Source: a bacterium (GTDB lineage Bacteria > Bacillota_I > Bacilli_A > RFN20 > CAG-826). From it: 64,000 nt of DNA. Below the pieces are notes generated by a model. That model was not told the origin of the DNA, ran no database searches, and was given only the letters and a program-made list of their open reading frames with translations. A program made the translations under genes and the position numbers. Shown piece by piece: positions 2,095-57,939 of the stretch. Position 1 is the stretch's first letter; every line of letters begins with the position of its first letter. The stretch covers positions 9,178 through 73,177 of the forward strand of contig CAVDSY010000003.1 of assembly GCA_963611815.1 (NCBI GenBank), in the 5' to 3' direction.

Positions 2095-3759
2095 ATGCTC
2101 AAACGCCTTTCCATTATCAATCTTGCGATTCTAGAGAACGTCGACATCGTTTTTCAAAATGGCTTCACGGTCTTGATGGGCGGAACGGGCGCCGGCAAGA
2201 GCCTGATCATCGATTCCTTGTCTTTGCTTCTTGGCCAACGCGCCTCTAGCGAGCTTATCCGCCAAGGAGAAAACAAAGCAAGCATCCGCGGGGAATTCGA
2301 GGCAAAATCTCCAAAATTGGAAGCGCTCCTTGCTTCGCTGGACATCCCTTTCGATGGATTTCTGACCATTGAAAGGGTCATCGGCAAAACGAAGAGCTAT
2401 ATCAAAGCCAACGGGACCCTCATCTCCTTGGGCGACCTATCCCGTCTTGCTCCTCTTCTTGCTAACATCCATTCGCAATTCGATGCGATGAAGCTGCTCA
2501 ACCCCGAGAATTACCTTTCCCTCATCGATTCCTATCGTTCATCGATGGTCGCGCCATATCTAGAGAGCTACCGCTTTGCTTTGTCTTCTTACCGTGAGAA
2601 GCAAAGCCGTTACGAGGAGCTTGAGGAAAAGAAAAACAAGCTCGAGTCCGAACGCGACTTCTATGAGTATCAATACAATGAGCTCAAAGGCATGGGGCTA
2701 GAAGAAGGTGAACAAGAAAGGATCGAGAACGAGATATCCTTGCTTAGGAACTACGATTCCATTTATTCCCTTGTTCAAGATTCCTCGTCAATCGTGCATG
2801 GCGACGCCATAGAAAAACTCTACGATCTCAACAAAAACGTCGCAAAACTCGTTTCTTTGCAGTCCCAATATCAAGAATCGTCAAAGCGCCTTGATGAAGC
2901 TTATTACGAATTAGAGGACATCTTCTCCGCTTTGAAGGGTCTTTTCTCTTCCTTGGATTATGATCCTGCCAGACTTGAGGAGCTGGAGCAGCGCGACAGC
3001 GAGCTCTCATCCCTAGAGAGGAAGTACAGGAAATCGATTCCCGAGTTGATCGCTTACCAGGCTGAGCTTGAGTCTCTCCTTGGGAAGGGCTCCACCTTCG
3101 AGGATGATCTAGAAAAGGCAAAACTAGATGCCGGCAAGGCCTTTGACGAGGCTTATCAAAAAGGGATCGATCTTTCCAAGATCAGGCAAGAGGTCGCGTC
3201 TTTGATTGAAAAGAATATGAAGAAGAGCCTCAAGGATCTCTTGCTGCGCGATGAGTTCAAAATTGCCTTCTCCACATTCAAGAAAGAGCCATCTTCTCTA
3301 AAAGACGACGGGCTTGATGAGGTGCAGTTCCTTATCGAGACCAACGTGGGCGAAGGTCTTAAGCCGATGGAAAAGATCGTTTCAGGTGGCGAGACGAGCC
3401 GCATCATGCTCGCTTTCCATTCGATCTTCCTTTCCGCGAACAAAGTTGGGACGGCAATCTTCGATGAGATCGATACAGGCATATCCGGAGAAGCCTCGAA
3501 GGCCGTCGCGAGCAAGATTTACGAGATCTCCCTTTCCACCCAAGTTATTGCGATCACTCACGCGCCTCAAGTCGCCTGTTTGTCCGATCATGCGATCCTC
3601 ATCGAAAAAAGCGTCAAAGATGGCAGAACCAGCACCTCTATCCATGAGCTAGGATTGGAAGAGAAGATCGACGCGGTGGCAAGCCTCATCTCCAATGGCA
3701 GGATAACCGAAAAGCAAAGGGAATACGCGAAAGAGATGGTTTTGGAGAAGGGGAAATAG
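2095..3759 (+). CDS. recN: DNA repair protein RecN
   Basis: Start MLKRLSIINLAI is typical of RecN; Walker A GGTGAGKS; long coiled-coil; C-terminal ABC signature region. ORF track start 1969 is a TTG extension. Confidence 0.85.
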   Translation: MLKRLSIINLAILENVDIVFQNGFTVLMGGTGAGKSLIIDSLSLLLGQRASSELIRQGENKASIRGEFEAKSPKLEALLASLDIPFDGFLTIERVIGKTKSYIKANGTLISLGDLSRLAPLLANIHSQFDAMKLLNPENYLSLIDSYRSSMVAPYLESYRFALSSYREKQSRYEELEEKKNKLESERDFYEYQYNELKGMGLEEGEQERIENEISLLRNYDSIYSLVQDSSSIVHGDAIEKLYDLNKNVAKLVSLQSQYQESSKRLDEAYYELEDIFSALKGLFSSLDYDPARLEELEQRDSELSSLERKYRKSIPELIAYQAELESLLGKGSTFEDDLEKAKLDAGKAFDEAYQKGIDLSKIRQEVASLIEKNMKKSLKDLLLRDEFKIAFSTFKKEPSSLKDDGLDEVQFLIETNVGEGLKPMEKIVSGGETSRIMLAFHSIFLSANKVGTAIFDEIDTGISGEASKAVASKIYEISLSTQVIAITHAPQVACLSDHAILIEKSVKDGRTSTSIHELGLEEKIDAVASLISNGRITEKQREYAKEMVLEKGK

Positions 3760-3841
3760 TTTTGTCGCTTCTTTGCTGGCTTTTAGGAAACCAGGGAAGA
3801 ACGGCATCAGATGAACATGATGTCGTAAATTGGAATATAGA

Positions 3842-4320
3842 CTAGCTTTCCTTCTTCTCAAAGTATTCCTTCAAATGGGAAATCACATCCTCATCTATGG
3901 AATTGGCCAAAAGGAACTCTTCGAAATCCATCGGATGCATTCTTTTCTCAATAATCGATCCCATGGGGGTCAAAGTTGTTTTTTGCATCGCGATTCCTAA
4001 CTCCGATCCGCTGCAAATGTATTTGTAACGATTGTCTAGATTCAAAAGCTTAAGCAATGTGAAAAGCTTGGGGCAGACCTGTATTTCATCAAGAAAGACC
4101 AATGTGTTCTTTCTCTCTCAGCTTTCCGCCGGCGAAAGAACCAAAGGCTAAGTAAAATGATTCGAGGGTGCTCGCATGCTCAAAAAGCCTTGCCCCGGCT
4201 TTGTCGTCCGCCATGTTGATCTCGACATGGTTTGGAAAGTGTTTTTTCGCAAGCTCACCGATTATGGTAGTTTTGCCTATTTGCCTCGCTCCATCAATGC
4301 ACAGGATATAGTTCTATCAT
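3842..4320 (-). pseudogene. remnant of AAA+ ATPase (AAA_14/DUF4143 family), 5'- and 3'-truncated with internal frameshift
   Basis: Walker A ILCIDGARQIGKTTII in one frame (4130-4300) and LDEIQ...MHPMDFEEF block in another (3842-4102); homologous to the intact gene at 29116-30456. Confidence 0.5.
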
Positions 4321-4585
4321 CTGTTAGATATTCTTCGATATAGGCGCTTTTTTACGGTACATATATCTTTGTCCTTTTGGGTTTTCCAACAAAAATATAT
4401 TGAAAAACTGCACTTTTCCAACATCTGTTTTATTAATCGATAAGTGACATGAATAGCTGCAAGGAGTTTATGTTCCGACACGCAAAGACCGCGCTTAGAA
4501 GGTTAGGAAGGCAGCAAAAGAAAATTCAACCACGTCGCTGCCGTTATGATTTACAATTGTCCCCGATTAAGGAGGCCTATGTAAA

Positions 4586-5047
4586 ATGGCTAAATCTACA
4601 GCAGGACGAGTGTGGTATGCGCTAGCGTTGCTCGTCGCCGGCATTATGCTCATTGTCGGAGGGGTCGATGGCGCAAACTGGATTATGGGGATGATCGTCA
4701 CCGTTATCGGCGTTATCACGATCGTTCTCGGGGTGATGTCCATCTGCAGCCGCAATGTGATGTTCGGCATCATCGAAATCATCTTCGGCATATTGATGGT
4801 CTCGTTTGCTTGGACTATTGCCTGGGTGGCCTTCCTCGTTAACGGGGTCATGCTGATTGCTTATGGCATCTCTGGGCTAGTCTCCAGGAGAGGCATCTTT
4901 AGCAACATTATGAACATCCTCATCGGCGTCATGATCGTCTTCCTCGGCTGCGGGAATGCGGCGGCTTGGGATTTCATGAACATCTTCTTCTATGTCTCAG
5001 GAGGCTTCCTCATCGTCGATAGCATCCTGGTCTTGTTCAACGTCTGA
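4586..5047 (+). CDS. small 4-5 TM membrane protein (HdeD/DUF308-like)
   Basis: 153 aa, almost entirely hydrophobic helices, good RBS aaggaggcctatg. Confidence 0.5.
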   Translation: MAKSTAGRVWYALALLVAGIMLIVGGVDGANWIMGMIVTVIGVITIVLGVMSICSRNVMFGIIEIIFGILMVSFAWTIAWVAFLVNGVMLIAYGISGLVSRRGIFSNIMNILIGVMIVFLGCGNAAAWDFMNIFFYVSGGFLIVDSILVLFNV

Positions 5048-5069
5048 TTCAAAGTCAAATATAGCAAAA

Positions 5070-5106
5070 CAACCGCGGGGAATAACTCGCGGTTGTTTTT
5101 GTTTTG
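5070..5106. terminator. bidirectional rho-independent terminator (caaccgcg..cgcggttg + T-run)
   Basis: perfect 8-bp stem followed by tttttgttttg, between convergent genes. Confidence 0.6.
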
Positions 5107-5160
5107 CTTAGGTTTTGCGGGGTTTCTGCTTGCACTCTGCGATTGCAGTCAAACATTTGA

Positions 5161-6132
5161 TTAGTTGCTTGCGCTTGTGCTTTTCACGACGGAGAGCTCG
5201 GTCAAGTCGCTGTAAAGAGGGTAACTTATATTGATCCCTGAGCTGCCACCGGCGTCATTCATTTGGTCGATGAAAGCATTAATTAGGCCGTTTGTTGTGC
5301 CGCTGTATGTTGTGTTTTTGCCGTCATCGTAATCAATCCATACATAGACGATGCAGGTTTTGTCGCTCGCCGCTGCGTATGTAAGGTCAAAGCTAATGGA
5401 AGCGTTTTTTGTGGTCTCAGTGGCGCCGTTAACGGTCTTCAGCGTTTTCACAAAATACTTTTGCTCTACATTCTTAAACTCATTTTTCAGCGTCTGGAAG
5501 TTGGTCTCAGAGCTGCCGCTATCCCAAGTATAGGTATGTTCGCCTCCCGTTACGGGTTCCACCATTGCCTTCACTGAGATAACGGAGGAAATGTAATTTG
5601 AGAGATCGTATTTTTGCCCAGAAGCGCCAGACGCGTCTTCACTTACTGACTCAGATGAAGAACTGTCGGTTGTCACTGTTTTGATAGCATGATCTTTATC
5701 CGTATTGTGCGTGATCGCTAAAGAAAGCTTGTTATCAGTGGTGGTGTATGTTCCGCCGCTGAGCTTGAGCTTCAATAAAATGGGGGTGTAGTCGTTGTCT
5801 TCTTGGAAGACCTGGTCATAACGCAGCAAAGAAAGATCCATCTTGCCTGTGTCATTGCCATTCGCATCTTTGATTGTTGGGTTTTCTGCGAATTCGTGGC
5901 TTCCGTTATCGTTCTGGATGTATTTGTAGACGGTCATGTCTACTGAGGCATTCTCGTCCGTTTTAACCTGGATCGCCATGCCGCTTGCGTCTACTTCTTT
6001 GTTGGATGCGAACCAAGAGAAAGTGGAGGATGTGCTGAACCAAGCAAACAACGATACCGCAAGCGTGCCCAAAGAAAGGAAATAGGCAACGCTTGCCAAG
6101 CGGAATCCTTTTCTTCTGAAGAGCTTGCTCAT
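5161..6132 (-). CDS. TasA/camelysin-like secreted protein with SipW-cognate-type signal peptide (locus 1)
   Basis: N-terminus K/R-rich, hydrophobic core, then SLFAWFSTSSTFSWFASNKEVDASGMAIQV, which parallels TFAFFSDKEVSNNTFAAGTL of camelysin and TWAAFNDIKSKDATFASGTL of TasA; paralog of 23918-24877. Confidence 0.55.
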   Translation of the reverse strand: MSKLFRRKGFRLASVAYFLSLGTLAVSLFAWFSTSSTFSWFASNKEVDASGMAIQVKTDENASVDMTVYKYIQNDNGSHEFAENPTIKDANGNDTGKMDLSLLRYDQVFQEDNDYTPILLKLKLSGGTYTTTDNKLSLAITHNTDKDHAIKTVTTDSSSSESVSEDASGASGQKYDLSNYISSVISVKAMVEPVTGGEHTYTWDSGSSETNFQTLKNEFKNVEQKYFVKTLKTVNGATETTKNASISFDLTYAAASDKTCIVYVWIDYDDGKNTTYSGTTNGLINAFIDQMNDAGGSSGINISYPLYSDLTELSVVKSTSASN

Positions 6133-6189
6133 GGGCTAATTCTACACCTGATACTTCGATTGAGCCTCTCGCATAGGAACAAAATACAG

Positions 6190-6330
6190 CCCCTGCTAGA
6201 AACCCTTTCGGGTTGGCAGCTGGCTGTCTTAGGAAGACCCTTTAGCTTTGCGTCGCCAGATTGCCCTGGCTTTGCTTTTGACGAGGGGAATTATAAGGGA
6301 TACGCGCGTACGCGCAAGGGCTAATTCTTT
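6190..6330 (-). promoter_or_regulatory. conserved structured leader (copy 1) plus relic of the giant-gene start codon region, upstream of the TasA-like gene
   Basis: nucleotide similarity to 28797-28900; hairpins GUCUU-CCUA-AAGAC and GCCAGG-GCAA-UCUGGC on the minus-strand RNA. Confidence 0.5.
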
Positions 6331-6656
6331 CTTGGGCGTCCTTTCCCCAAAATGCAGACAGCTTCAAAAAAATGGCTTTTCCCATAATTCGTCGACTTTT
6401 GTATTTGAAAGCAAAATAGCGTGTCCCCATCGGAAGAATTAGATCTTTTTGGCTTTGCCAAATCGCAGAAAGCCAAAGGGGTCATTGTTGGCGAATTGCT
6501 TTTCTTGAGCAAATTTACGTTATCAAAAAACGATCATTTGCATTTACTGGCCCTTGCGTGGTCTGCGCGTTTGTTGAAATGAGAACGGAAAGCGTCAAAG
6601 TTCTTCTTTAGAAAGCCGTTTAAGACCATTCTTTTGGCGGGGACAAAAAGCCTGTC

Positions 6657-9214
6657 TTAGGCGCTCGAAGTCGTATCTTTAGGGGAATAGTCTTCTTTGC
6701 TGCCGGTGGCCGTTATGCCTGTTCCTGTTATGCTCGTTGTTCCGCCTGCGGTATCAACGTAATAGACCGTTATCGTTTCGTTTTCACCATCAACTGTTCT
6801 AACGCGGTAAAAATAGACTGTGGTAGGGTTGCCACTTATAGCGAAGGTTACTTTTGATGGGGTGTAATCGGATTCGGTGGTTATGTTGCCTTCGCTGTCC
6901 GTTGTTTCTTTCGTAGAGTTGATTGGCTTGATGGTTTTATCTGTAGTGTTGGAATAGTAGACGAAGTCGATGGGAGGAACTTCCTCTTCGCCCGTATCCT
7001 TTTTCCCGTCCGCTCCGTTGGCGCCGATATCGAAATACATGATGTAGGGGCAGTTGGTCGCGGAGGAATCCGCGCCGACGAAGTAATCTCCTGCGCTCAG
7101 AGGGATCTCCATGTAGTAGGCGCACCCATTTTTGAGAACGCCCTCCCCGCTCTTCCCACTGATTGGGTATATGGCGTTCAGGTCGAATATTTTCTCTGCG
7201 CCGTTAGGGATCGTCGCGGAGTCATCTGTGTATTGGTTGTAGTACTTGCCATCAAATTTGTAGATGGCGCTGATTTTCTTCGCGCTCTCGATTTGCTTCT
7301 TGTCCGTGGAACGGATAATTTCGTAAACGGAAGGCATGGCGTGCCCAGACGAGCTCGAGGCTGAGGTGTAAGTTCCGAGGATCATCTTCAGCGAGCCGGA
7401 ACTCGATAGTTCGAAGTTGAAGCCGGCTTTATACATCTCGTAGCCTGAATCGTAAGTGACACCGTTTATCTGTATATCACTGTAAGTCCCTTTTTCCAGG
7501 GCTCCGTAATTTTTAATGTCGTTAGAGCCGATTTTGTAGAGTTGGATTCCATCCAAACTGATTATGCCGCTGGCTAAGGTGTCGGGCTTGTTCTCACTCG
7601 AAATCATCTTCGCGAAATTGTGTTTAACCTTGTAGTAGCCATTCTCAATGTCACCGAAGCCGCAATCCGCGATGTCTTTGCTGTTTGAGGTCGTGCTCGT
7701 CGACCATGATTTGCCGCTGTTTTCCGTATCCGAGATGCGATAGGTGGCGTTTTCTAGATTGGTCGCCAGAGTGTCAATGTAGAAAAAAGAGAGGCTGTCG
7801 TATCCGAAAACTGGGTAAATTCCGGTGGCGTCTTTTGTCCTATCCGCTTCGGATATGGATGTAGCGCCTTTGTCTGATACGTATATCGAATAACGAATTC
7901 CGTTTTTTTAGTTTCGCTTGAACTATTCAAGTTCATCCCTTTGTTATAGAGACGCGGCGTTGCGTTGGATGATGAGATGGTGCCGTCGCCGCCTCTGCCG
8001 ACGAGATAGCCCGTATTGCTGTCTGAGACAGGCTCACCCGTATTGCTGCCTTTTGTGTAGTAGGTTCCGATGTCTTCAGTATCTATGTAAGAACTGGAGA
8101 TCGTCGCTTTATCCAAATCGATATTGAGTGGGAGGCAGGTTCCATTTTGCAAATTGACGCTTTGCCCGAGGTCCTTTGTTGTATCCCAGGTGAAAGGTGT
8201 GCTGTAGTAGTAAATGTTCGCCTTGAACCGCTCGGTCATATCGTATGCCTTCGTGGCTGATCCAGCCGTCATCCCTTTTGCCGCGGCTATGTAGGTGATT
8301 CGCTTGGCGAGGCTCGCGATGTCGATTGATCCGCCCCAGCTGCCGCTGGTGTCGCTGCCCGATCCTCCCGGCTTCCCTTTGTAGTCGAAGTGGTTTGAAT
8401 TATAAGCCCCGATCAAAGAGTGTTGGCTGAGCTTGTCGTTGTCAGCAAGTGCTCCACTGTTAATCACTGAAACATTCGCGTTTTGAAAATCGAAATAGCC
8501 TGATCTGACGCCACAATTGGTCAATTGGCCATTCGCATAGCCGGCGATTAGCCCGACGAGCGTTTGATCGGTATTGGTCTCGACGGTTAGATAGTCAAAG
8601 TAGAGGTCTTTTACTTCGTTTACTTCAACGGTGTAGCCTGTGACCTCGGCGTCGCTTTCGTATTCGCCGACGATGCCGAAGAAACCAACGATGGAGATGC
8701 TGCCTTTGACGTTGCTGTCAGCCCCGGAAGGCCAGCCGGTCTTTTTTAGATTGTCTTCGTTATTGCTGATCGTGAGGTTGCTTATTTTATAGCCCGCCCC
8801 ATTGAAGTTCCCTATGAAGGGGTATTTCGTGGTTCCTGCAGGAGGCAAATAATAACCGTCCGCGTCGATGTCGTTATTCAGTACGAAGTAGACCTGTTCG
8901 TAATCGCTGGTTTCGTTCCCGGAGGCGTCTTTTTTCTTTTTGTTGAAATACCCTGGGTCTTGCAGCCAGTTGAAATAGTAGAGCTGTTTTGGCGTTTCTA
9001 TTTGATATGCGGTTTCCGCGGTTTTCCCATCGCCTCCAGCGAAGTAGCTTCCGACGGCCGCTCCATCCACCCCATCCACTTTCTGAGTGGTCGTAGGTCT
9101 GATGAACCACGCGAGCGATGATACGCCCAAAGTGCAGCCGATGACGACGAAAGAGATCCCGAGGATCAGAATCGGTTTGTTGACGTTGCTGCGGCTTTTT
9201 TTCTCTTTCATGGG
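6657..9214 (-). pseudogene. giant GLUG-motif / beta-helix secreted protein (locus 1), reading frame broken by 1-nt shift at A7 tract (7903-7909); possibly phase-variable rather than dead
   Basis: ORFs 7754-9292 and 6657-7607 are N- and C-terminal parts of a paralog of the 1310-aa protein at 24882-28796. The frame of the second ORF stays open upstream to the A7 run, where the first frame leaves it. Start is MKEKKSRSNVNK at 9214. Confidence 0.55.
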
Positions 9215-9448
9215 CGTCCCTTTCTTAGGAACTAAGAAACGATACATCGATAGAAGGCAAAAGACAAAAGGAATAATCATGTATAAAGGCAAGGTCCGAT
9301 ATCACTATTTTCGATGCGCCGTTGTTATCAATGGTTTGCATTTCTTCTATGCTTTCAGGCCTTCTCGGCTTTGTTGATGGAAACAGATAACTTCGTTCCT
9401 AAAAGGGATGAGCAAATCCGTTAAAGCATGTAAGGAGGGAACAAACGC

Positions 9449-10357
9449 ATGCTTTACACCAAGATAAGAATGGATTTCAAATACGCGGATAAGGGCCGCT
9501 TCTACCGCGTCTTGCTCATAAAAGGAAATCAGGATTTGCTAACTTTAGGAGTGGCTTTGGGCGATGCGGTATCCGCCGAATTCGAGCATTGCTTCCTCAT
9601 CACGACTGGGAGGAAAGGCCCTTCTTACGTCATGGCCCCTTTCATGGAGGATCCCTTGCCTGGTTATTGCGCTTTAGCAAGGCATACGCTTGATGAGCTG
9701 CCTGAACACTTCGATTATGAATACGATACCGGGGATGGCTGGGACTTCGCCTGCAAACGCTACAAGAAAAAGGTGGAACTCGACTCAAAGCAAGACGTTA
9801 TCCTGCTTGAAGGAGCTGGCCAAGGCGTGTGGGAAGATAACATCGGCACCCTCTATGATTATTTCGCCGGTAGGATAAGCAAGGATTCCGGCGAAGAGGA
9901 TCCCGATAACGGCATTGCCAAACCATGGAATTTCTCCATCGACACCTATGACGAATTCGATTCGCCTTTGGACATCGACTCGCTCAACGACGACCTCGCT
10001 TCGAAGTTCCCCGCGGACTGCCGCCTCATCAAGAAGCAAGAGAACGACTACATCAAGAAGAACGAAATCAACATGGACGATTACACCCATGATGATGCAT
10101 CTGGCGATGTGCAGATCTTCCCTGAAAGCCTCTATTTGGACATCGAAGAGCAGATCTCTACCAAAAAACGCGCGGAGAAGGTCTTCGACGAGCTATCCGC
10201 CCTTTATAGCGGCGGCAAGGCCAGGAACATCATGGCCGCGGTCTATTACAAAACCGTGATAATCGCCTACATTACAAAGAAGATAGATATCGATGAGGAA
10301 AGCTATTTGACCGAGCTTGAAGAGCTGACGGCCAAGCTTAAAGAAGAGAAGAAATAA
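9449..10357 (+). CDS. pRiA4b ORF-3-like family protein (PF07929-like, YEYDTGDGWDF motif)
   Basis: 302 aa; conserved Y.YDxGDGW.F block and acidic C-terminal half. Confidence 0.5.
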   Translation: MLYTKIRMDFKYADKGRFYRVLLIKGNQDLLTLGVALGDAVSAEFEHCFLITTGRKGPSYVMAPFMEDPLPGYCALARHTLDELPEHFDYEYDTGDGWDFACKRYKKKVELDSKQDVILLEGAGQGVWEDNIGTLYDYFAGRISKDSGEEDPDNGIAKPWNFSIDTYDEFDSPLDIDSLNDDLASKFPADCRLIKKQENDYIKKNEINMDDYTHDDASGDVQIFPESLYLDIEEQISTKKRAEKVFDELSALYSGGKARNIMAAVYYKTVIIAYITKKIDIDEESYLTELEELTAKLKEEKK

Positions 10358-10621
10358 CAAAACTCGCATTCTTTTAGGCGCGTGGATGGCCCAGCGACCG
10401 CCGGCTTTTTCGCCTCATCCCTTAGCTGACCAATGGACTTTCCATCAAGCGTTTGGGAGAGTAGGGCTTTTAAGCGTTAGCTTGGGCGCCGTTGCGCGGC
10501 GTTAATTTCGCGTTTTAATTAGCTTTTGCGGCTTTTTTGAGGTGGTTTGGGATAAATGCGCTGAACCCAATTCTTTTCCTAACGCTGAAATGAGCGTAGA
10601 TTATGCGAGGTGGTACCAAGC

Positions 10622-13800: not shown

Positions 13801-15916
13801 TTAGCTAATTTTCAGCTGGATGCAGGGACGGATTGCCGTTTTGATTCCCAAACCATTGTTTTGGGTGCCACGGTACTTGGCAATCGCGCTACTCGGCGAT
13901 AAGCCTGGGGAACGGGTCCACCATCCAAGCACATCGCCGTCCTCGTCCGTTAACGTGTCAGCACTGACGAAACCATTCTCGTGGTTCATTATTTGACTAT
14001 AACTTGGCAGATAAGCCATGTCGGTCGTGTCTTCGCATGCATATTCGCCGCCAGAGCTATCAGTCGTTTTTGAGGAATTGTCGACAACGGCTGTTTGAAC
14101 CAAGGATTGATCATAGTAAAAAGCACGGGTGACGAATTCATTGTTAAGCCACTCTCTAATGTCGGATTTTGCGTAGTTATTAGCATGTGAGCCATCTTCG
14201 TAATCCTCGTCAGACTCGTTCCAAGAACGACGATCTAACGCGCCGTCGGCGATAAACTCTTTTACCCCATTGCCTTTGTCGGACATATACCGCCACTTGA
14301 TGGGCTCGACCTTTTTATAGCGCCATTCAGAAAATTCGTAATATTTTTCCCCATTGTATTCATAATAGCCTTGCGCATCGGCGGTTGTTAGGTTGTCCAA
14401 TTTGCTGCATAGTTCCCAATCGTTCACATCTGCTTGTGGGTATTCTCCGTTCTGCTTTCTGCTAATCGTTTTAGTTTGCGCCGTGACGGTCATTGAGGAG
14501 GTCACGTTATCTAGGGATTTGTCCCATCCGACAAACATGGTCACGTTTTCAGCGTCATAGGAATAACACATGTCCACGATTTCCTTGTAACTTGTGGGGT
14601 AGGTGGCCGTTCCATTCTTGGGCGCGCCGGCGCTTGCGAGCTTGTTGCTGGCGAGATCATTAAAGGTCACGACGTAGCCTTCGTAGGTCTCTGAAGTGTA
14701 TTGCGCAGTAAACGTTGTTGGTGAACTTATGGTGAAATCGGCGTTCGTGTCCCAAGAGGAAAAAAGATAGTTCGTCCCCATGCTCCCATTGGTGACAGGC
14801 TCCCTTACCGGGACAGGAAGCGCGCAGGTTATCCACCTGTTTTTTTTGATGACAACTTCCTTGAGGAGAGTGGAATCCCAATCGAGGAACTTGCACACAT
14901 AGTACGTCGACTCCTCATATTGAGCTATGAAAGTAGTATCCGCTTGGATTCCTCTGAGAGTCTTATCCCATCCTTTGAAGGTGTAGCGCGTTATAGTCCC
15001 CTCGTTGTTCGCCTCGTCTTTGGTCGGGGTCTCTCCGCTGTAGACCGCCTTGCCCCCGACGCCGCAGTAGGAAATCCCAATTCCGTCCCGTCCTCGTTGA
15101 CGAAGGTGCACTTGATGGCGTTCGGTGAATTGAAGATTGCGGTGTAGGTCGTGTCCTCGTAGATCGGACCGAGGTCCTTGTCCCAGCGCTCGAATGTCCA
15201 TTCTATCGTCGAGGATCCGTCGGTCTCACTTGGCCTGGTCGGAGCCTCCCCTTCATAAGAAGGCGTCTCCCCGAAATTAACTGTGGTTGTGGATAGAATC
15301 GCCCCATCGTAGTTTTTGAACGTGACGTTCACCAGCGACTCGAATTTGGCGGTGAAGATCGTCGGTTTCTGGATGTTGTCCAGGGGTTTGTCCCAGCCGA
15401 CGAAAGTCCAATGGGCCGTGCGCCCGTCGATGGTCGTGTCTTCCTTCGCCGGCGTCGGGCCTTCGTATATCGCGGACGCGCCTTTCTCGAAGTAGAACTC
15501 ATAGAGCTTCGTGCCGTCCCAGTTGTTGAAGATGCACGGGATATAGTTATGGCGTCTTGGCCGTCCTTGCCGTCGGCACCATTTTTTCCATCAGCACCGT
15601 CCTTTCCCGCGTCGCCCTTGTCACCTTTCTCCCCCTTCTCGCCTTTGAGGTTATCGATGAGGGTCCATCCGTAGGCGTTTTTCTCGTAGACGTCGTAGTT
15701 GGCGGTGTTCACGTAGTAATCGCCTTCGTTACCTATCGCCTTATCCGGCTCTCCTATTCCAGAGAGGACTTTCGAACCTTCCTGCGCTTCCTGCCTATCC
15801 GTGTCAACCACGCTGTCTGAGCTGCTGTTATAGCCTCCTCCGATGACCGCGCAGGAGCTGATGCTCATCACGGCTGAAAGCATGGCCAAGGCCAGGATTT
15901 TCTTGCTTTTGTTCAT
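13801..15916 (-). pseudogene. surface lipoprotein with collagen-like G-x-x repeats, Listeria-Bacteroides repeats and C-terminal DUF6273-like domain; two frameshifts (near 15545 and at the G5/C5 tract near 15045)
   Basis: Three successive minus-strand ORFs (15329-15931, 14991-15332, 13801-15201) each carry part of one domain series. Lipobox MNKSKKILALAMLSAVMSISSC; GEKGEKGDKGDAGKDGADGKNGADGKDG; repeated TF.GWDK..........T.TA.F units; C-terminal domain homologous to 22728-23531. Confidence 0.5.
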
Positions 15917-22727: not shown

Positions 22728-23531
22728 GTGGGTGGCGCAATATTCGGCGTCTTGACCCAAAAAGGCGCCTATCCCCAAAGCCGCGTCTGGGACGAGTCCA
22801 TCATCTCCTCTTTGGAATCGCTCTCCGGCCCGACGATCAACGACTGGTACCTTCTCGATGGCAATTACTATGCTCGTCTCAGCGCGACCCCACGTTCATC
22901 GAAAAGCAAATTCGATGATGGCGAGAAAATCGTAACAGGCCAAGAGTATTGGTTCAGATGCGAGCCGATCGAATGGAAGATCCTCTCTTCTTCAGGCGGT
23001 GAATACTCATTGGTTTCGAGCAAGCTTTTGGACACCGCTATGTTCAACGACATCTATGACGGCGAACAGGTGGATGGGCATTACGCGAACAATTACGCCT
23101 TTTCCTCGATCAGAAGTTGGCTCAACGGCGATTTCCTTACTACCGCCTTCCCGTATGAGAATGAGTATCTAGAGACCGTCGAGGTCGATAACTCCGCCGC
23201 CACGACCGATTCTTCTGAAAACGTCTATGCCTGCGAGAACACCTTCGACCAAGTCTATCTGCTGAGCTACCAGGATTACGCTAACGCTACTTACTTCCCT
23301 GACGACAACTCAAGGAGGTGTCAGACGAGCGAATGGGCGAGAGCGAAAGGAGCCAACGTCTACACCTCAAGCGGCCTCAACCACACCAATTATTACTACA
23401 CCCGCTCGCCTTATTCCGCTAACCCCGACTATGCGATCGCCATCTATCCGAATGGCAACTTCAGTTACGGCTCGCGGACCAATTACACCCAAGACTCACC
23501 GCGCCCTGGAATCACGATAAAAATCGCATAA
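22728..23531 (+). CDS. stand-alone DUF6273-like domain protein (no signal peptide; possible N-terminally truncated remnant of a surface protein)
   Basis: homologous to C-terminal 250 aa of the 13801-15916 gene (HYANNYAFSSIRSWLNGDF / SHANNYAKSDIREWLNNEF; VYACENT / EYACEDT; terminal RPGITIKIA / IRPCIQLKIS); GTG start, in-frame stop at 22623. Confidence 0.45.
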   Translation: MGGAIFGVLTQKGAYPQSRVWDESIISSLESLSGPTINDWYLLDGNYYARLSATPRSSKSKFDDGEKIVTGQEYWFRCEPIEWKILSSSGGEYSLVSSKLLDTAMFNDIYDGEQVDGHYANNYAFSSIRSWLNGDFLTTAFPYENEYLETVEVDNSAATTDSSENVYACENTFDQVYLLSYQDYANATYFPDDNSRRCQTSEWARAKGANVYTSSGLNHTNYYYTRSPYSANPDYAIAIYPNGNFSYGSRTNYTQDSPRPGITIKIA

Positions 23532-23917: not shown

Positions 23918-24877
23918 CTATTCGGAAACCTTGATGGTGAGCTCGGTGATGTCGCTGCCCAAAGGATAACCCGCGTCGACCGTCGTCAGTTTGGACTTCA
24001 TCTGATCGATGTAGGCGTTGATGAGGCCATGCCCCTTAGCCCCGTTGTCGTAAATGCTTTGGCTGACGTCGTAATCCATCCAGACGTAGGCCGTGCAGGT
24101 TTTGATGCCTTTTTCCGAGAGGACTTCCTCATACGCCAGATTGGCGTCGTTAGAGAAGTCGAGGTCGCTTTTGCTGGCCGCCCCGGTTGAGGGGATGCTG
24201 CTCACGAAACGCTGCGCATTGTCCGCGAAAGAATTTCGCATCTCTTCGAAGTCCGCCTCCAGGGCCGAAGAGTCGCTAGACAAAGCGTTGATTTCCGCCT
24301 CGGAGAAGATGGTCTCGTCGTTATGGACCATCGCCTTTACCGAGACGACGGATGATAGATAGCTTGAAAGATGATAGGTGGCGTCATCGTCCGCGATCGA
24401 GAAATTGTCCGCGTCGCTTTCCTCCAGAGTCCAGCTGACTTCTTTGTCCTTGCTTGAATCGTGGAAAATCTTCAGGGGGAGGATGTCCCCATTTTTGTAA
24501 CTGCCCCCGTAGAGGCGAAGCTGGATGAGCAGAGGGGCGTAGTCGTTATCGTCGGTGAAGATCTGATCGTAACGCGTCAGCGAAAGCTCATCGGGGTCTC
24601 TTTGGACATGGTAGACGCCCGTTCCTTTCTTGCCGCTTTCCCCATCGTCTTCCTGCTCCTCGACGTAGCGGTAATAATGGGCCTCGATATCGACGTCGTC
24701 TTCGCCTTTTATTGATATGGACATGCCGCTAGCCTCGACCTCTTTGTTCGAGGCGAACCAAGAGAAGGTTGAGGAGGTGCTGAAATAGGCAAAAAGCGAG
24801 GTCACCAAAGCCCCTAGGGAAAGGAAATAGGCAAGCGATGCGGCTTTGAAGCTTTTCTTTCTTAACGTCTTGCTCAT
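23918..24877 (-). CDS. TasA/camelysin-like secreted protein with SipW-cognate-type signal peptide (locus 2)
   Basis: N-terminus MSKTLRKKSFKAASLAYFLSLGALVTSLFAYFSTSSTFSWFASNKEVEASGMSISI; paralog of 5161-6132; start 5 nt after the giant gene stop. Confidence 0.55.
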   Translation of the reverse strand: MSKTLRKKSFKAASLAYFLSLGALVTSLFAYFSTSSTFSWFASNKEVEASGMSISIKGEDDVDIEAHYYRYVEEQEDDGESGKKGTGVYHVQRDPDELSLTRYDQIFTDDNDYAPLLIQLRLYGGSYKNGDILPLKIFHDSSKDKEVSWTLEESDADNFSIADDDATYHLSSYLSSVVSVKAMVHNDETIFSEAEINALSSDSSALEADFEEMRNSFADNAQRFVSSIPSTGAASKSDLDFSNDANLAYEEVLSEKGIKTCTAYVWMDYDVSQSIYDNGAKGHGLINAYIDQMKSKLTTVDAGYPLGSDITELTIKVSE

Positions 24878-24881
24878 CTTC

Positions 24882-27800
24882 TCACTCCGTGGCCTCGATG
24901 GCGATTACTTGGCCTGCGCCCGTGACCGCGTTCCCGTTTATCGTGATGGAATAGTTTGAATCGCTTGGCGTGGAAATGATGGTCGCATTGCATTTCTCGC
25001 TGCAATGGACCGTGACCACGTAAGTTTTGTTGGTCGCGTCGTAAACGTATTCGACGCTCGCCTCGCCATTGTCTAAGCTGATTTTGAACTCGCCGAAAGT
25101 CTCTTCTCTTATTATCGTTTCAGGGCCCTGCCATTCGGAGGAGGCGGTCTCGCTTGCGGTCCCTGTGGCGGTTATGGTGAGGCTACCGTCGCTTTGCATG
25201 GTGACAAGCCCGCTAGAAGAGACCGCTCCCACGCTTTCGTCACCGCTTTTCCAAGTTGCTTCATTGGCGAGGAAATAAAGCTGGATCTCATCCCCTTTGC
25301 TCGCTCCGCTTATCGTCCAGGTGCAGGAGTAGGTGAGGTTGAGCGAGGTGTTGACGGGGTTGTATTTCTCGCTGGTCTCTCTTTCCATGATGACGATTAG
25401 AGGGGTGTCGCTTTTCTTCGGTAGGGCGGTGCCGGCGCTGTCTTTCACGCTCACGCCTTCTTTGGAATAGACCACTTTGACCCCGGAACTCAGGCTGGAG
25501 GTGAGGACGTTGCTTTCGTAGGAATAGTCGATTCCCTTAGAGGGCGCAAGTAAAAGAGCCACGCAGGCCGAGCCTCCTCCGCTGAGCGAAGGGAGATCTT
25601 TGAAGGAAGAGGTGAAGTCCACTCCTTTGGGGTAGTTTTGCTTGATGATGTTGGAGGTGGTCTTCTCTTTGATGGTGACCGCCTCGTAGTCCGCGGCCCC
25701 GGTGCCGATGTCTAGGTAAAGCAGATAAGCCCCCGATTTGCCGGAGACCGACCCAAGGGCGTATTCGCCGGCGTTGACGGGGATCTCGAAATAGTAGAGG
25801 CAGTTGCTAATTATGTCGCCGTCGGTGCTGGCGATCCAGCTGACGTCAAAGACAAGCTGGGAGGAGGAGCTGTTCGCTGGTACGCTGCCATCGTATGAAT
25901 AGAGATAGGGCTTCTCTTTCTTATCGTCGCCCAGATTCGCGTAGATTTTGCTGATCTGCTTGATTTCGGAGATGCTGTTGTTCTCGTCGCGGACGACCTC
26001 GTTGAGACTGAAGAAGCAGGTGTTGTTGGTGAAATACGATCCCCCGAAGAAATTGATGTAGCCTTCGGTGGCGAGATTGAAGTCGATGGAGTCTTCGGGG
26101 ACGTCGTAATTTGAATAGACCGAGCCGCTTTGTGTTGGTTTCTCATCAGTCTTGCCGTCGAGATACTCCTGCAGTTTATCTTGGTAAACCTTTTCGGCGG
26201 CCTTGTCGTAGACGATGGCCTTGCCGACCTGGCATAGGTGGTCGGTGGAGATCTGAGCGTTCATGAAGTGAAGGCCATAGAGAGCGGTGCTTGAGCTCAC
26301 GCTGCCGCTGAAGATGGTGCTCTCGAGGTTGTATCTCGCGCTGTCATAGCGCTTGAGCTTTGAGCTCTCAACGGTGGTGGATGGGATTGAGGAGCTTTTG
26401 CTAGCGGAGGAGTTGTAGTTGTCGATAACCCTTGACCAGCCCGAATCCGAATAGGCTCCGTCCTCCTCGATGCAGGAACGGGTCACCACCTGCAGATTTG
26501 AACTGTTGTATGCGCTGTAAAAAGAGGTGCTCAGGCTCGACATCTTGTATGCTTTTGAGACGCGGATGTCGCCCGCGTAGTCGCTTGAATCGATAAAATT
26601 CGCTCCCCCGACGAGATAGCCGGTGTTCATTTCCGAGACCCCGTTTATGCCGGTTTTGCTGTCCTCATCGCTGTAGCTGTAGGCCAAGGGGACGTAGGTG
26701 GGATTGACGTAATAAGCGGCGTTCCTTTCACTCGTGGAGGACTCCTTCACGCCGGTTTGTGAGGAGTCGGAGAATGAAAGACCGGTGCTGATGTCCCCTC
26801 CGGTGCCGACCTTAGCGATTGTGAAGCTGTGGGAGCTCGTGCTGGTATCGGCGGCGAAAGAAGACGAACCGTAATATAGGTAAACCGTGTAGCTGGTTAT
26901 TGTGCCTCTGAGATAGGCGCTCATGGTGCCCGTTCCAGTGCCGTCGCTTTGGGCACCAGACAAAGTGTAGCGACTGATTGCGGTGCTCCCGGTATTTGTG
27001 CTTGCGGACATGATAACGTTGAAAGTGTTGGAAAAGCCGCTTCTGGTTCTTTGCGCGCAAAGATAGAGCGTTGATGAAGTCAGGGGTCGGTAGCCGTTCG
27101 ATGACGAGTCATAGGCCCATTTGAATTCGTCGCCGCTTACGGAATCCGAAGAAGAGATCGTGCCGGAGCTGGAAGAGCCGATGTACTTCTTTGAATAGGT
27201 GTCCAAGATGGTTAGATAGGTTTCGCTTATCTCGTCTTGGACTAGCGTCCAGGCACTGGAGGTTTCATCGTAATCCAAGTAATAGGAATACGAATCGTCT
27301 GAAGAATAGATATTTCCCTTGTCTGCCTCGTAAGTCCAAGTGGTGGAGGCGCTGGAAGTCAGATAAAGGGAGTTCGATGAGCTTCTGCTGAGGTAATAGG
27401 CGGTTTCTCCGACGTAAGTGTAAATATAGCCGGACCCTCCGGCGCTTGGCATGTTCCAGCCGCAGGCGCCGGAAGAAGAGACGTCGATTAGCGTGCCATC
27501 TTCAGAGACCGAGAGGAAGTGGCCGGATTTTGAAATGGTAGGAAGATAGCCATAGACATTGCGCTTGACGCTCATCTTCTCCGAACTTGAAGTCGGCACT
27601 TCGTCAGGGGTGCCGTATATGAAAACGTAGGTGTCATCGTACGTTGATGATGTGGTGATGCCATAGGAGGCGAGCACCCCTCCATCTTCATCCTTTCTTT
27701 GGCCGTTCTTGAAATAGTATTGGGTTCCGCCGCTTTCGCTTCTGGTCGCTTTCGTCGAGGAATAGACGATGTCTTTCGGCTGGCTTTCGTTGCCGCTTGG

Positions 27801-28796
27801 GTCGACGTCGATGGTCTCTGAGGCGACGTAGTAGACATCGCTGGTGATGCTCGAGTCGCTTTGCTCGCTTTTGATGTCGTTGTACATCTGCTCCATGTCG
27901 ACCGATCCGCCCCAGTTGGTGGAACCGTGGCTTGTATTGGGGTTCTCAACCTGGGGCATGCTCATGGTCTCATCGCTGACAAGCGTTTTGGCGAGATAGC
28001 TATCGGTTGCGTAGCCGACGAGAGAATACTCGGAGACATGCTCGACCCCGGTGATGTCGGTGATTGGGGACGCCCCTGATTTGGTGGCGATCGATGAACC
28101 GTTGACGCCCACCCCTGAAAGGGTCCCGTTGACATAGCCCGCGGCGAGGCCAACCAAAGTGGAGGAGGAAGCGGAGACGATCGAAAGGGAGGATAGGCCG
28201 AGATTCTTGATCTCGTTGGCGGAAGTGTCGTAGTTATATCCGTTGACTTTGCTCTCGTCGCTTGTCGAGCCGACCACGCCGAAGAAACCGACGATCTCGG
28301 CTTGCTTCAGATTGCCCTCGCTGTCCTCTTCGGCGCGGGCGGGGACGTTGGTAAGCTCTGAATAGTCGTTAGTGATCGTGAGGTTGCTGATGGTGTGCCC
28401 GTTCCCGTCGAAGGAGCCGACGAAAGGATATTGCTCCGTCCCTGCGGGAGGAAGGGAATAGCCTTCCCCGTCGATGTCGCTGGTGAGTTTGAAATAGATT
28501 TGCTTTATTGCGGTCTTTCCGTCGTTTGGGTCGTTGAATATGCCGAGGTCCTGCAGCCAGTTGAAGTAATAGAGCTGGCGGGCGTTATCGATTTCGAATG
28601 GAGCTTCTTTGGAGCCGTCCCCTCCGTTGAAATAAGAGCCGCTGCCCTTGCCTCCTATCCCTCTTAATGCGGCGCTGGTCTGAGCTTTGGAGAGCCAAGC
28701 GAGGCTAGGGATGGCGACCAGTCCGGCGCACGACAAAAAAGCGAGCCCTAAGAAAAACGCCGCCTTCTTTTTCTTGTCTGCTAGAAAACCTTTCAT
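24882..28796 (-). CDS. giant (~1305 aa) secreted GLUG-motif / beta-helix protein with SipW-type N-terminal signal and long S/T/Y-rich low-complexity middle region
   Basis: N-terminus MKGFLADKKKKAAFFLGLAFLSCAGLVAIPSLAWLSKAQTS; the YPFVGSFDGNGHTISNLTITN and LVGLAAGYVNGTLSGVGV (GLUG-like) motifs; RBS AGGCGG; ORF track start 28814 is a TTG extension. Confidence 0.65.
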   Translation of the reverse strand: MKGFLADKKKKAAFFLGLAFLSCAGLVAIPSLAWLSKAQTSAALRGIGGKGSGSYFNGGDGSKEAPFEIDNARQLYYFNWLQDLGIFNDPNDGKTAIKQIYFKLTSDIDGEGYSLPPAGTEQYPFVGSFDGNGHTISNLTITNDYSELTNVPARAEEDSEGNLKQAEIVGFFGVVGSTSDESKVNGYNYDTSANEIKNLGLSSLSIVSASSSTLVGLAAGYVNGTLSGVGVNGSSIATKSGASPITDITGVEHVSEYSLVGYATDSYLAKTLVSDETMSMPQVENPNTSHGSTNWGGSVDMEQMYNDIKSEQSDSSITSDVYYVASETIDVDPSGNESQPKDIVYSSTKATRSESGGTQYYFKNGQRKDEDGGVLASYGITTSSTYDDTYVFIYGTPDEVPTSSSEKMSVKRNVYGYLPTISKSGHFLSVSEDGTLIDVSSSGACGWNMPSAGGSGYIYTYVGETAYYLSRSSSNSLYLTSSASTTWTYEADKGNIYSSDDSYSYYLDYDETSSAWTLVQDEISETYLTILDTYSKKYIGSSSSGTISSSDSVSGDEFKWAYDSSSNGYRPLTSSTLYLCAQRTRSGFSNTFNVIMSASTNTGSTAISRYTLSGAQSDGTGTGTMSAYLRGTITSYTVYLYYGSSSFAADTSTSSHSFTIAKVGTGGDISTGLSFSDSSQTGVKESSTSERNAAYYVNPTYVPLAYSYSDEDSKTGINGVSEMNTGYLVGGANFIDSSDYAGDIRVSKAYKMSSLSTSFYSAYNSSNLQVVTRSCIEEDGAYSDSGWSRVIDNYNSSASKSSSIPSTTVESSKLKRYDSARYNLESTIFSGSVSSSTALYGLHFMNAQISTDHLCQVGKAIVYDKAAEKVYQDKLQEYLDGKTDEKPTQSGSVYSNYDVPEDSIDFNLATEGYINFFGGSYFTNNTCFFSLNEVVRDENNSISEIKQISKIYANLGDDKKEKPYLYSYDGSVPANSSSSQLVFDVSWIASTDGDIISNCLYYFEIPVNAGEYALGSVSGKSGAYLLYLDIGTGAADYEAVTIKEKTTSNIIKQNYPKGVDFTSSFKDLPSLSGGGSACVALLLAPSKGIDYSYESNVLTSSLSSGVKVVYSKEGVSVKDSAGTALPKKSDTPLIVIMERETSEKYNPVNTSLNLTYSCTWTISGASKGDEIQLYFLANEATWKSGDESVGAVSSSGLVTMQSDGSLTITATGTASETASSEWQGPETIIREETFGEFKISLDNGEASVEYVYDATNKTYVVTVHCSEKCNATIISTPSDSNYSITINGNAVTGAGQVIAIEATE

Positions 28797-28900
28797 CAGC
28801 CGCCTTGTTGGCAACCGGCTGTCTCCAAGAGACCCATGGCTTTGCGTCGCTAGGTCGCCCTAGCTTTGCTTTTGTCGGGTTGATGATACGCGAAATGTGT
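28797..28900 (-). promoter_or_regulatory. conserved structured 5' leader of the giant gene (copy 2): hairpins GUCUC-UUG-GAGAC and GCUAGG-GCGA-CCUAGC (GNRA loop)
   Basis: aligns with 6190-6330 with compensatory base changes in both stems. Confidence 0.55.
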
Positions 28901-28989: not shown

Positions 28990-29086
28990 TTGATTTTCAT
29001 TTAGAAAATGCAACTAAACCGCTTGATTTTCATTTAGAAAATGCAACTAAAACTTTGATTTTTCATTTAGAAAATGCAATATTCAA
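28990..29086. repeat. three tandem direct repeats (period 33 bp) each containing the palindrome ATTTTC-ATTTA-GAAAAT; putative operator array in the divergent promoter region
   Basis: TTGATTTTCATTTAGAAAATGCAACTAAA at 28990 and 29023 (identical) and a 1-nt variant at 29055. Confidence 0.8.
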
Positions 29087-29115
29087 TTTGCTTTTTAATG
29101 ATTGATGGAGGTTTT

Positions 29116-30456
29116 ATGGAGTTTAAAAGGAAGGTATATAGCCAAATGAAGGAGTGGAAAGATGAAAGAAACAAGAATTCCGCTCTTTTGATTGAAGGAG
29201 CTAGGCGCGTGGGAAAAACGACGATCGTCAAGGAGTTTGCCAAAAACGAATACGACGGTTTCATTTATATAGATTTCACTTATGCTCCCGACGAAGTCAA
29301 AAGCCTTTTTAAGAAGATAAACCCGGCCAATCGGCTTTCCATGGACCAGTTCTTCTCAGATTTGTTTCTGCTTTTTGGAAAAACGCTGAAGAAAGGAGAT
29401 TTGATCATTTTCGATGAGGTTCAGCATTTCCCATTGGCAAGGCAAGCGATAAAGGCGCTCGTCTCCGATGCCAGATACGACTACATAGAGACAGGCTCTT
29501 TGATTTCCATCCGTGAGAATACGCAGGACATCCAAATCCCTTCCGAAGAAAGAAGGATCGAGATGCACCCCATGGATTTTGAGGAATTCTGCTGGGCTTT
29601 TGGCTGGAACGAGAAATGTGAGATGCTCCGCGCGATATGGGATCAGCGCAAGACGATCAGCGAAAGCGCCCACAGGCTTTTGATGGATGATTTCAGACTC
29701 TACTTGGCTTTGGGGGGGATGCCGAAAGTCGTCTCTTTGTATCAAGAGACCCACTCATTCATGCGCTGCGAGAAGGAAAAGCAGGACATATTGAAGCTAT
29801 ATGAGGACGATCTGAGAAAGCACGACAACAAATCGAGGACGCGGACATTGGATATCTATGATTCCATGCTTCCTTCACTCAAAACCTGGTCGAGGAGAGT
29901 GAAGACGAACAATCGGAGTTCCAGCATGGCCCTATCCTATCAAAGGTCGCTCAAAGATCTTGAGGACTCCAAAATAGTGAACGCGGTCTACCGCTGCCAA
30001 GATTTGAGTTTCGGCACTTTCATGAAGGAAGAGAACGATTTCAAACTTTATCCCCTCGATGTCGGGCTTATGCTCAGCTCTTTGATTGGCGATGCGAACG
30101 ACGATTGCGAGAAGACGTATCTCAAAATAAGGACTGGAAAGCTGGATGGGGCCAATTTCGGAGTTCTGTACGAATCGCTGGTTGCCCAAAGCTTGGCATG
30201 CAACGAAAGGAAGGTCTTCTATCACACCTTCGAGTACGGCGAGAAAAGATATGAGATCGACTTCGCCACCTTCATAAAAGGAAAGATGAATGTGATTGAG
30301 GTCAAATCGACGAAGCGTTTCACGACTTCTTCTTTGTCTTCTTTGAAAGCTAAATACCCGCAGCTGAAGTTCGATAAGTTAGTCGTCTCGCCCAAAACCC
30401 TCAGCTATGACGCCGAGACGACTTACCTTCCTATTTATATGACTTTCCTGCTCTAA
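29116..30456 (+). CDS. AAA+ ATPase (AAA_14/DUF4143 family)
   Basis: Walker A LIEGARRVGKTTIV; Walker B LIIFDEVQ; RBS gatggagg; intact paralog of the remnant at 3842-4320. Confidence 0.65.
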   Translation: MEFKRKVYSQMKEWKDERNKNSALLIEGARRVGKTTIVKEFAKNEYDGFIYIDFTYAPDEVKSLFKKINPANRLSMDQFFSDLFLLFGKTLKKGDLIIFDEVQHFPLARQAIKALVSDARYDYIETGSLISIRENTQDIQIPSEERRIEMHPMDFEEFCWAFGWNEKCEMLRAIWDQRKTISESAHRLLMDDFRLYLALGGMPKVVSLYQETHSFMRCEKEKQDILKLYEDDLRKHDNKSRTRTLDIYDSMLPSLKTWSRRVKTNNRSSSMALSYQRSLKDLEDSKIVNAVYRCQDLSFGTFMKEENDFKLYPLDVGLMLSSLIGDANDDCEKTYLKIRTGKLDGANFGVLYESLVAQSLACNERKVFYHTFEYGEKRYEIDFATFIKGKMNVIEVKSTKRFTTSSLSSLKAKYPQLKFDKLVVSPKTLSYDAETTYLPIYMTFLL

Positions 30457-41791: not shown

Positions 41792-42547
41792 ATGGGGACG
41801 CTAGGCTACTATCAATCCATAGAATCCTTCGCCCTGGTGGACGGACCTGGGGTCAGGTCCGTCCTTTTCCTTCAGGGCTGCCCTTATCGTTGCTTGTTTT
41901 GCCATAACCCAGATACCTGGCCTTTTCTGAAAACTAACCCAATCAGCGCCGAAGAGGCTTTCAAAAAGCTTTATCGCTTCAAGCCTTATTGGAAGGACAA
42001 CGGAGGGATAACCATCTCCGGAGGCGAGCCTCTTTCCCAAATAGACTTTCTGATTGAATTAGGGGAGATCTGCAAAAAAAACGGGGTTTCATTCATTGTT
42101 GACACAGCCGGCGGGCCTTTTAATAAAAACCCGCAATTCTTGGCTAAGTTCGACCGTTTGCTTGAGCTTTGCGACCTTTTTCTTCTTGATATGAAGGTGA
42201 TTGATCCTGAACGGCATCAAAAACTTGTGGGGGCCGGCAATCAGAATGTTTTGGAACTCTACGAATACCTTGCTTTGAAGAATTTCCCCATATGGGTGAG
42301 GCGCGTTTTGGTGCCGGGGTGGAACGATAAGGAAGAATGGCTCGCTAAAGAAGGCGAATTCCTTTTGGGCTTAGGAAACGTCCAAAGAATCGAAGTCCTT
42401 CCCTATCATACTTTAGGGACTTTCAAGTATAAGAAGCTTGGGATCCCCTATCCTTTGGAAGGCGTCAATCCTCCTGACCAAGAGCAAATTAAGCGCGCGA
42501 AAGAGCTTTTGAGGGTAGCTGATTGCCCTTATGAGAAGGCACATTAA
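41792..42547 (+). CDS. pflA: pyruvate formate-lyase activating enzyme (radical SAM)
   Basis: GCPYRCLFCHNPDTW radical-SAM cluster motif directly downstream of pflB. Confidence 0.85.
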   Translation: MGTLGYYQSIESFALVDGPGVRSVLFLQGCPYRCLFCHNPDTWPFLKTNPISAEEAFKKLYRFKPYWKDNGGITISGGEPLSQIDFLIELGEICKKNGVSFIVDTAGGPFNKNPQFLAKFDRLLELCDLFLLDMKVIDPERHQKLVGAGNQNVLELYEYLALKNFPIWVRRVLVPGWNDKEEWLAKEGEFLLGLGNVQRIEVLPYHTLGTFKYKKLGIPYPLEGVNPPDQEQIKRAKELLRVADCPYEKAH

Positions 42548-49289: not shown

Positions 49290-49424
49290 AGTCTTTTCCT
49301 CCTATTCAATATAAGTAAGACTTGTCTTTAGGAGGTAATGACGTCGGGAGCTTTGGTGCAAACAAGGAAGAAAAACGCAAAAGGAGAGCAGTTCTTTCGG
49401 CGATGTTTTCTTCTTTGTTTCCTT

Positions 49425-49502: not shown

Positions 49503-49635
49503 ACGTTAAGTAACTATATATAAAGAAAACGGTTTGCAAACATGAAAGCGGTTTAACGCTAAATTATCTTCCTAGCCCCTTTTTTGCCTTTCTCCCTATG
49601 TTACAATAATCGGCTAGAAAGAAGGTACCCAATCC

Positions 49636-57902: not shown

Positions 57903-57939
57903 AAAAAGCTTACCTCCCTGCCGTGGAAGGAATTTTGGC

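Follow-up and report, generated by a model that had tools for sequence, protein, structure and literature searches.

The surface-protein gene inlA of Listeria monocytogenes occurs as in-frame A7, frameshifted A6 and interrupted A2GA4 alleles that coexist among lineages, and reversion from A6 to A7 has been measured at 5.5e-7 (Orsi et al. 2010, PMC2831843). A 7-base run in glpK of Mycobacterium tuberculosis gives rise to homoplasic, reversible frameshift variants with a known phenotype (PMC10334774). Here, we describe a frameshift in G1, the large gene of a two-gene module at positions 5161–9214 of a 64-kb stretch of DNA from an uncultured gut bacterium (the window; GenBank assembly GCA_963611815.1, contig CAVDSY010000003.1, GTDB lineage CAG-826). 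The small partner gene of G1 is T1, and locus 2 of the same window carries their counterparts, G2 and T2. All coordinates are those of the whole 64-kb window, and the G1 and T1 genes in 5161–9214 all lie on the minus strand. Frameshift polymorphisms caused by homopolymer slippage are well known in surface-protein genes, and the G1 frameshift is a further case.

G1 is a single gene of 851 codons that begins at ATG 9211, preceded by the ribosome-binding site AAGGGA, and ends with a stop at 6657. The T7 on the plus strand at 7903–7909 corresponds to A7 on the G1 coding strand and falls at codons 434–436 of 851. Specifically, the start frame reads ...NSSSETKK up to the run, continues for 50 aberrant codons and meets a premature stop at 7754 (7754–7756). 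In the −1 frame, a TAA overlaps the initial A's of the run, and the sequence is then open, reading KNGIRYSIYVSD... through to the stop at 6657. On a profile hidden Markov model (HMM) of the G1 family built from 22 full-length homologues, the open reading frame (ORF) 7754–9301 occupies positions 1–432 and the ORF 6657–7907 occupies positions 422–797. Because they are co-linear on the profile and meet at the run, the two ORFs represent consecutive halves of one gene, and the insertion of one A into the tract generates an 851-amino-acid (aa) protein. This co-linearity and one-base repair bear out the original prediction, made from the sequence of the window, that the gene is split exactly at the A7 homopolymer; its description of the locus-1 protein as giant does not hold for a product of only 851 aa. 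For annotators, the two ORFs at 6657–9211 belong to one gene, organized as follows (CBM, carbohydrate-binding module).

7910–9211, minus strand: 5′ part of G1, codons 1–434 up to the tract; a hydrophobic N-terminal segment that carries an AWF motif and is followed by a beta-helix domain
7903–7909, minus strand: A7 frameshift site; A8 in relatives, encoding Lys-Lys-Asn (AAA AAA AAC)
7754–7902, minus strand: out-of-frame tail of G1 (TEFVIRYTYQ...LWRPI); read in the −1 frame, these bases give the native G1 residues
6657–7902, minus strand: remainder of G1 on the 3′ side of the tract (native codons 437–851), read in the −1 frame; CBM-like beta-sandwich domains, absent from the product of the A7 allele
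8954–8956, minus strand: G1 codon 86, which is Pro (CCA) in the window but Leu (CTA) in the sister contig L001; motif LYYFNWLQD[L]GYFN

A database search with the repaired G1 sequence recovered many single-ORF homologues of 735–876 aa. The 485-aa database protein P0002 is the truncated G1 product of the window, and it shares a 90% cluster with the intact 851-aa protein P0122, from which repaired G1 differs at two residues only (P86L and I537L). P0122 is encoded intact on contig L001 (GCA_963628075.1), whose DNA is 99.2–99.3% identical to window positions 4254–10426. A third assembly, L003 (GCA_963610675.1), shows 99.2% DNA identity over 8.4 kb, with the G1 frame open to the contig edge. At the tract site, both L001 and L003 read GAAACT-A8-CGGAATTC, whereas the window has A7. 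The comparison of strains that the original prediction proposed thus reveals a tract length that differs within the species, A7 in the window versus A8 in two other assemblies. The nearest G1 orthologue, found at locus L083 (67% identity), writes the same Lys-Lys-Asn residues as AAAAAGAAC (A5GA2), so the long A run is specific to the species of the window. G1 also contains a second A7 run at 9196–9202 (codons 3–5, MKEKKS), which is in frame and is A7 in L001 as well.

Other sources were searched for further alleles. The same strain is represented by contig L002 of Logan (SRR13434654), which matches window 3575–6222 at 100% identity and ends before the tract. A variable-length exact-pattern scan for the tract among JGI metagenome contigs gave 0 matches, and a protein-guided scan for G1 in the same collection identified no relative. 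Looking up the 485-aa and the 316-aa fragment as exact proteins returned no record, and no further assembly covering the tract was found. GCA_963593235.1, which is a fourth assembly of the species, has no G1 copy on record. Scanning a genome collection with the single G1 protein also retrieved no relative; an alignment-based scan succeeded, with a top match just 51% identical, so the species representative lacks G1.

Several features of the broken allele bear on its age and fate. Across the 2.5 kb of G1, the window and L001 differ by six synonymous and two non-synonymous changes, and the tract aside, there are no further stops or indels; the break is therefore likely to be recent. At codon 86, 82 of 88 ORFs of the family in the related loci, and 114 of 116 database proteins, have Leu, Met, Ile or Val. 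A proline at residue 86 is found only in the window allele among ~200 family members, and it falls in the most conserved motif of the family, LYYFNWLQDLGYFN. Because L86P is unique and affects this motif, it suggests relaxed constraint, and it is a possible second inactivating change on the broken allele. AAA accounts for 56% of Lys codons in this DNA and often occurs twice in a row, and chance alone can therefore produce an A8 run. We consider the A7 allele of G1 to be probably, if by no means certainly, a polymorphism of recent origin and confined to one strain, which truncates the protein or abolishes its function and lies at a mutational hot spot. The allele is best described as truncated or null and mechanistically revertible, and it is probably not a phase-variation device. 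Replication slippage would have removed a single A from an A8 run, the difference in sequence being directly visible, and translation would depart from the native frame after Lys-435, gain 50 wrong residues and stop.

The G1 protein has no match in Pfam or NCBIfam. An AlphaFold model computed on a 22-sequence alignment has a mean predicted local distance difference test (pLDDT) score of 79, and the architecture of G1 runs from a hydrophobic anchor or signal at the N-terminus through a beta-helix to C-terminal CBM-like beta-sandwiches. The 851-aa protein contains no HExxH motif and has no peptidase match in Pfam. The frameshift after residue 435 falls within the confidently modelled structure, and, by sequence and model, the truncated protein retains the beta-helix and loses the C-terminal half that holds the sandwiches. 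The window strain would then probably lack one half of a surface protein, the C-terminal part that is likely to bind glycans, and the frameshift itself amounts to routine strain-level variation.

Locus 2 provides an intact reference for the broken gene. Repaired G1 is 37% identical over 314 aa (E 4e-51) to the 1310-aa protein G2 (24882–28814, minus strand), and past the frameshift point the two still align, with 27% identity across 162 aa (E 6e-11). T1 (323 aa) is 39% identical to T2 (23918–24877; E 1e-63). These alignments confirm the proposed paralogous two-gene architecture at both loci, with the G1/G2 match continuing beyond the break. G2 exceeds G1 by 459 aa, comprising ~280 aa of scattered insertions rich in serine and threonine (28–34% S+T) and a 180-aa C-terminal extension with a Big_2 domain. 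The ~450-aa S/T-rich middle region that locus 1 had been said to lack is thus dispersed in insertions plus a C-terminal extension and does not form one block.

The missing A could in principle be a sequencing or assembly artefact, in which the organism is truly A8 and the consensus dropped one A or took a minority variant. The source is probably a metagenome-assembled contig, consensus indels are commonest at homopolymers, and the sole frame-breaking difference from the relatives falls at such a run. The rest of the window speaks against this explanation. It contains 12 homopolymer runs of at least 7 bases, and intact ORFs accommodate two other 8-base runs, at 14840–14847 (a DUF6273 protein) and 42074–42081 (pyruvate formate-lyase (PFL) activase), and six further 7-base runs. 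No other broken housekeeping gene was seen in the window, where PFL, GMP synthase, GH31 and others give full-length Pfam profile matches. With eight comparable runs in intact ORFs, systematic homopolymer error is unlikely, as the original prediction had argued. Five single-base indels set the window apart from both relatives, of which four lie in non-coding or degraded DNA (6649, 6184, 4349 and 4313), and the three neighboring changes at 6184, 4349 and 4313 are exactly present in the independent contig L002. Because the indels avoid intact coding sequence, they resemble real mutations filtered by selection and not random consensus errors. The private substitutions L86P and L537I are carried by the same allele as the frameshift, which marks the broken G1 as a distinct haplotype, and we give an artefact a small chance. 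Under recoding, the A7 allele would still yield full-length G1, either because tRNA-Lys slips by −1 on AAA-AAA during translation or because RNA polymerase inserts an extra A at the run. Runs of the Lys codon AAA are known to be shift-prone, as in dnaX and in poly(A) rescue in endosymbionts, and a −1 shift on the second AAA reproduces the native ...TKKNGIRY.... However, the relatives carry a plain in-frame A8, so a frameshift is not conserved, and seven A's are short for efficient transcriptional slippage. The zero frame reads ACU AAA AAA ACG, without an in-frame X XXY YYZ heptamer, and the nearest downstream stem begins ~34 nt away with a z of only −2.4. A programmed −1 ribosomal frameshift of the dnaX type was rejected on these grounds (no heptamer, no stem 5–9 nt downstream, no conservation of the shift), and recoding as a whole is very improbable.

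A more substantial alternative is a genuine contingency locus, in which an A7/A8 run is maintained and slipped-strand mispairing toggles G1 frequently and reversibly within populations, for purposes such as evading immunity or phage or tuning adhesion. A change of ±1 in the tract does toggle the frame, with A7 breaking and A8 restoring the 851-aa ORF. Tract length varies between strains of one species, G1 is otherwise free of stops, its product is surface-exposed or secreted with several family paralogues per genome, and the second A7 run at codons 3–5 lies in the same gene; in both Listeria inlA and M. tuberculosis glpK, a tract of 7–8 bases is sufficient for reversible switching. However, the closest orthologue lacks the tract, the run is located mid-gene and not near the 5′ end, and two runs of at least 7 bases in 2.5 kb are no significant excess over 12 per 64 kb. 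The run is neither maintained in related lineages nor enriched beyond codon usage, and housekeeping genes contain 8-base runs as well. L86P is found only on the OFF allele, and among ~100 family genes in 80 loci there is one other clear frameshift split (L021), which is not at a homopolymer. We see no sign of the A7/A8 tract being a selected contingency locus and regard frequent switching as unlikely, with a modest chance of being correct. The original prediction had offered ON/OFF switching or recent pseudogenisation: the second fits the data, whereas the first sits poorly with an orthologue that lacks the tract and with L86P on the broken allele. Three considerations weigh against decay as the explanation. 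The tract is covered by only three assemblies, all probably metagenome bins; L86P could be neutral or predate the frameshift; and one broken allele of three, in a surface protein whose family has several paralogues, would equally be expected if the gene were truly phase-variable.

The split family member in L021 (5968–8417) is interrupted by a 1-nt frameshift, GAAATTC in place of the expected GAATATTC. This split lies outside a homopolymer; occasional decay of G1-family genes therefore takes place elsewhere too. A second apparent split family gene, in L059, is a candidate only.

T1 is preceded by a regulatory leader that lies between the two genes of locus 1, and an aptamer of the same class stands in front of G2. 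Matches to the Rfam model RF01051 of the cyclic di-GMP-I (c-di-GMP-I) riboswitch are read against its gathering score of 35 bits, and a custom covariance model was built from eight aptamers.

6212–6286, minus strand: c-di-GMP-I aptamer between G1 and T1; RF01051 at 58.1 bits, custom covariance model at 93.6 bits
6178–6226, minus strand: terminator-like hairpin and putative expression platform; the 3′ strand of the aptamer is also part of the hairpin (6226–6187), after which comes UAUUUUGUU
5161–6132, minus strand: T1, intact small partner gene of 323 aa; N-terminal hydrophobic segment, FSWFASNK motif, beta-sandwich
28807–28880, minus strand: c-di-GMP-I aptamer 11 nt upstream of the G2 start codon; RF01051 at 57.4 bits

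Because the hairpin reuses the 3′ strand of the aptamer, c-di-GMP binding would be expected to block the terminator in the T1 leader, making it an ON switch. No riboswitch was found upstream of G1 itself. Since T1 has its own riboswitch leader, the G1 frameshift should not silence it. The indel at 6184 affects the U-run of this leader and could alter riboswitch read-through: both sister strains have T5 where the window has T4. In the 80 related loci to which our neighborhood and riboswitch counts refer, the custom model detected 65 same-strand aptamers in 49 loci; 42 of these precede a T-family gene by at most 400 nt, and 12 precede a G gene. A literature search for c-di-GMP riboswitches combined with TasA/SipW or with the G/T family found nothing relevant. 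Two riboswitches of other classes are present in the window. A tetrahydrofolate (THF) riboswitch at 57812–57903 (plus strand) precedes an ORF of 188 aa, and a purine riboswitch at 49415–49515 (minus strand) precedes a xanthine/uracil-family permease (47736–49289).

T1 matches the T-family profile with E 1e-128 and is identical in the independent contig L002. Its structure model has a mean pLDDT of 73, with the N-terminal 50 residues disordered. A hydrophobic N-terminus followed by (A/S)WF is common to the G and T proteins. The small protein had been labelled TasA-like, a name that fails every sequence and fold test we ran. Specifically, T1 has no match in Pfam (Peptidase_M73), NCBIfam or PDB profiles at lenient E-value thresholds, and no SipW signal peptidase gene is present within the 64-kb window. 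An identity as TasA or camelysin (Peptidase_M73) was rejected on the lack of a family-model match, of a TasA-type jelly-roll fold and of an adjacent SipW.

The G/T module is a widespread, uncharacterised pair of proteins, a beta-helix/CBM protein and a small beta-sandwich protein, under the control of c-di-GMP-I riboswitches, and it constitutes a major regulon of this riboswitch class. Scanning GTDB species genomes revealed 261 relatives. The usual gene order is T then G (49 of 80 loci), and recurrent neighbors (for example, at L017 12726–14024, L026 12248–13114 and L060 1536–2915) include EAL-domain genes (17/80), AAA_14/DUF4143 ATPases (12/80) and a SipW-like signal peptidase (7/80), which matches its model at E 6e-16 but scores under the NCBIfam cut-off. 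The module, rather than the frameshift, is the more novel object, and it suggests that gut Firmicutes carry a major surface structure, controlled by c-di-GMP, that has yet to be studied. A bolder proposal, that the A8/A7 run is a working ON/OFF switch in an undescribed, very widespread c-di-GMP-riboswitch-controlled surface-protein pair of uncultured gut Firmicutes, is doubtful in our view; if true, stochastic switching of the beta-helix/CBM protein would be layered over second-messenger control of the small partner.

Some observations concern the surroundings of the module. In the window, an AAA_14/DUF4143 gene is intact next to locus 2 (29074–30456) and survives as a degraded fragment next to locus 1 (3842–4102). 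Two DUF6273-domain proteins are encoded between or beside the loci, at 13801–15201 (minus strand), which includes the intact T8 run 14840–14847, and at 22728–23531 (plus strand). In the neighboring PRiA4_ORF3-like gene (9449–10357), 13 nt of the window (10190–10202) are missing from L001 (position 226), which splits the gene in L001 into products of 265 aa and 41 aa; the absence lies near the contig end and may be an assembly artefact. Metagenome-assembled genomes (MAGs) of the 'H07xxx-L1 cleanbin' series that carry the Firmicute-type module are labelled E. coli, Bacteroides uniformis and Prevotellaceae, and these taxonomic labels look unreliable. Other labels on related MAGs are Erysipelotrichaceae, Lachnospiraceae, Clostridia and Bacilli/'Mollicutes'.

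Comparison with described systems places the module and its frameshift in different contexts. The RF01051 aptamers upstream of T1 and G2 recall the adhesin and surface genes of Firmicutes that are controlled by c-di-GMP-I riboswitches; unlike those regulons, the G and T families lack a model in Pfam and NCBIfam, and we found no member that has been characterised. The N-terminal beta-helix domain of G1 is similar to that of the IgA1 proteases (M26; PDB 3n6z, 7uvk and 7jgj), but G1 lacks their HExxH metalloprotease domain and its C-terminus consists of CBM-like sandwiches. T1 shares with the TasA/TapA/SipW system of Bacillus an N-terminal hydrophobic segment, an aromatic motif (SWFASNK...ASG), a beta-sandwich and an adjoining larger partner gene, and the SipW-like signal peptidase gene of 7/80 related loci adds a partial likeness. 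In contrast to that system, the partner of T1 is a beta-helix protein of 851–1310 aa and not TapA, and a c-di-GMP riboswitch controls the module.

For the frameshift itself, M. tuberculosis glpK offers a parallel in its short coding homopolymer of 7–8 bases, in slippage by ±1 and in frameshift alleles scattered among strains; homoplasy, reversibility and a phenotype have been documented for the glpK variants. Listeria inlA differs from G1 in that its A7/A6 run lies at codons 3–8, compared with an A8/A7 run mid-gene; the two proteins are unrelated, and the G1 comparison spans three genomes. Both are nonetheless Firmicute surface-protein genes with an in-frame A(n), a truncating A(n−1) and a G-interrupted run in related lineages (A2GA4 in inlA, A5GA2 here). 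We regard inlA as the best-fitting precedent for the A7/A8 polymorphism of G1, and if the Listeria rate is a guide, reversion from A7 to A8 could run at roughly 1e-7 to 1e-6 per generation.

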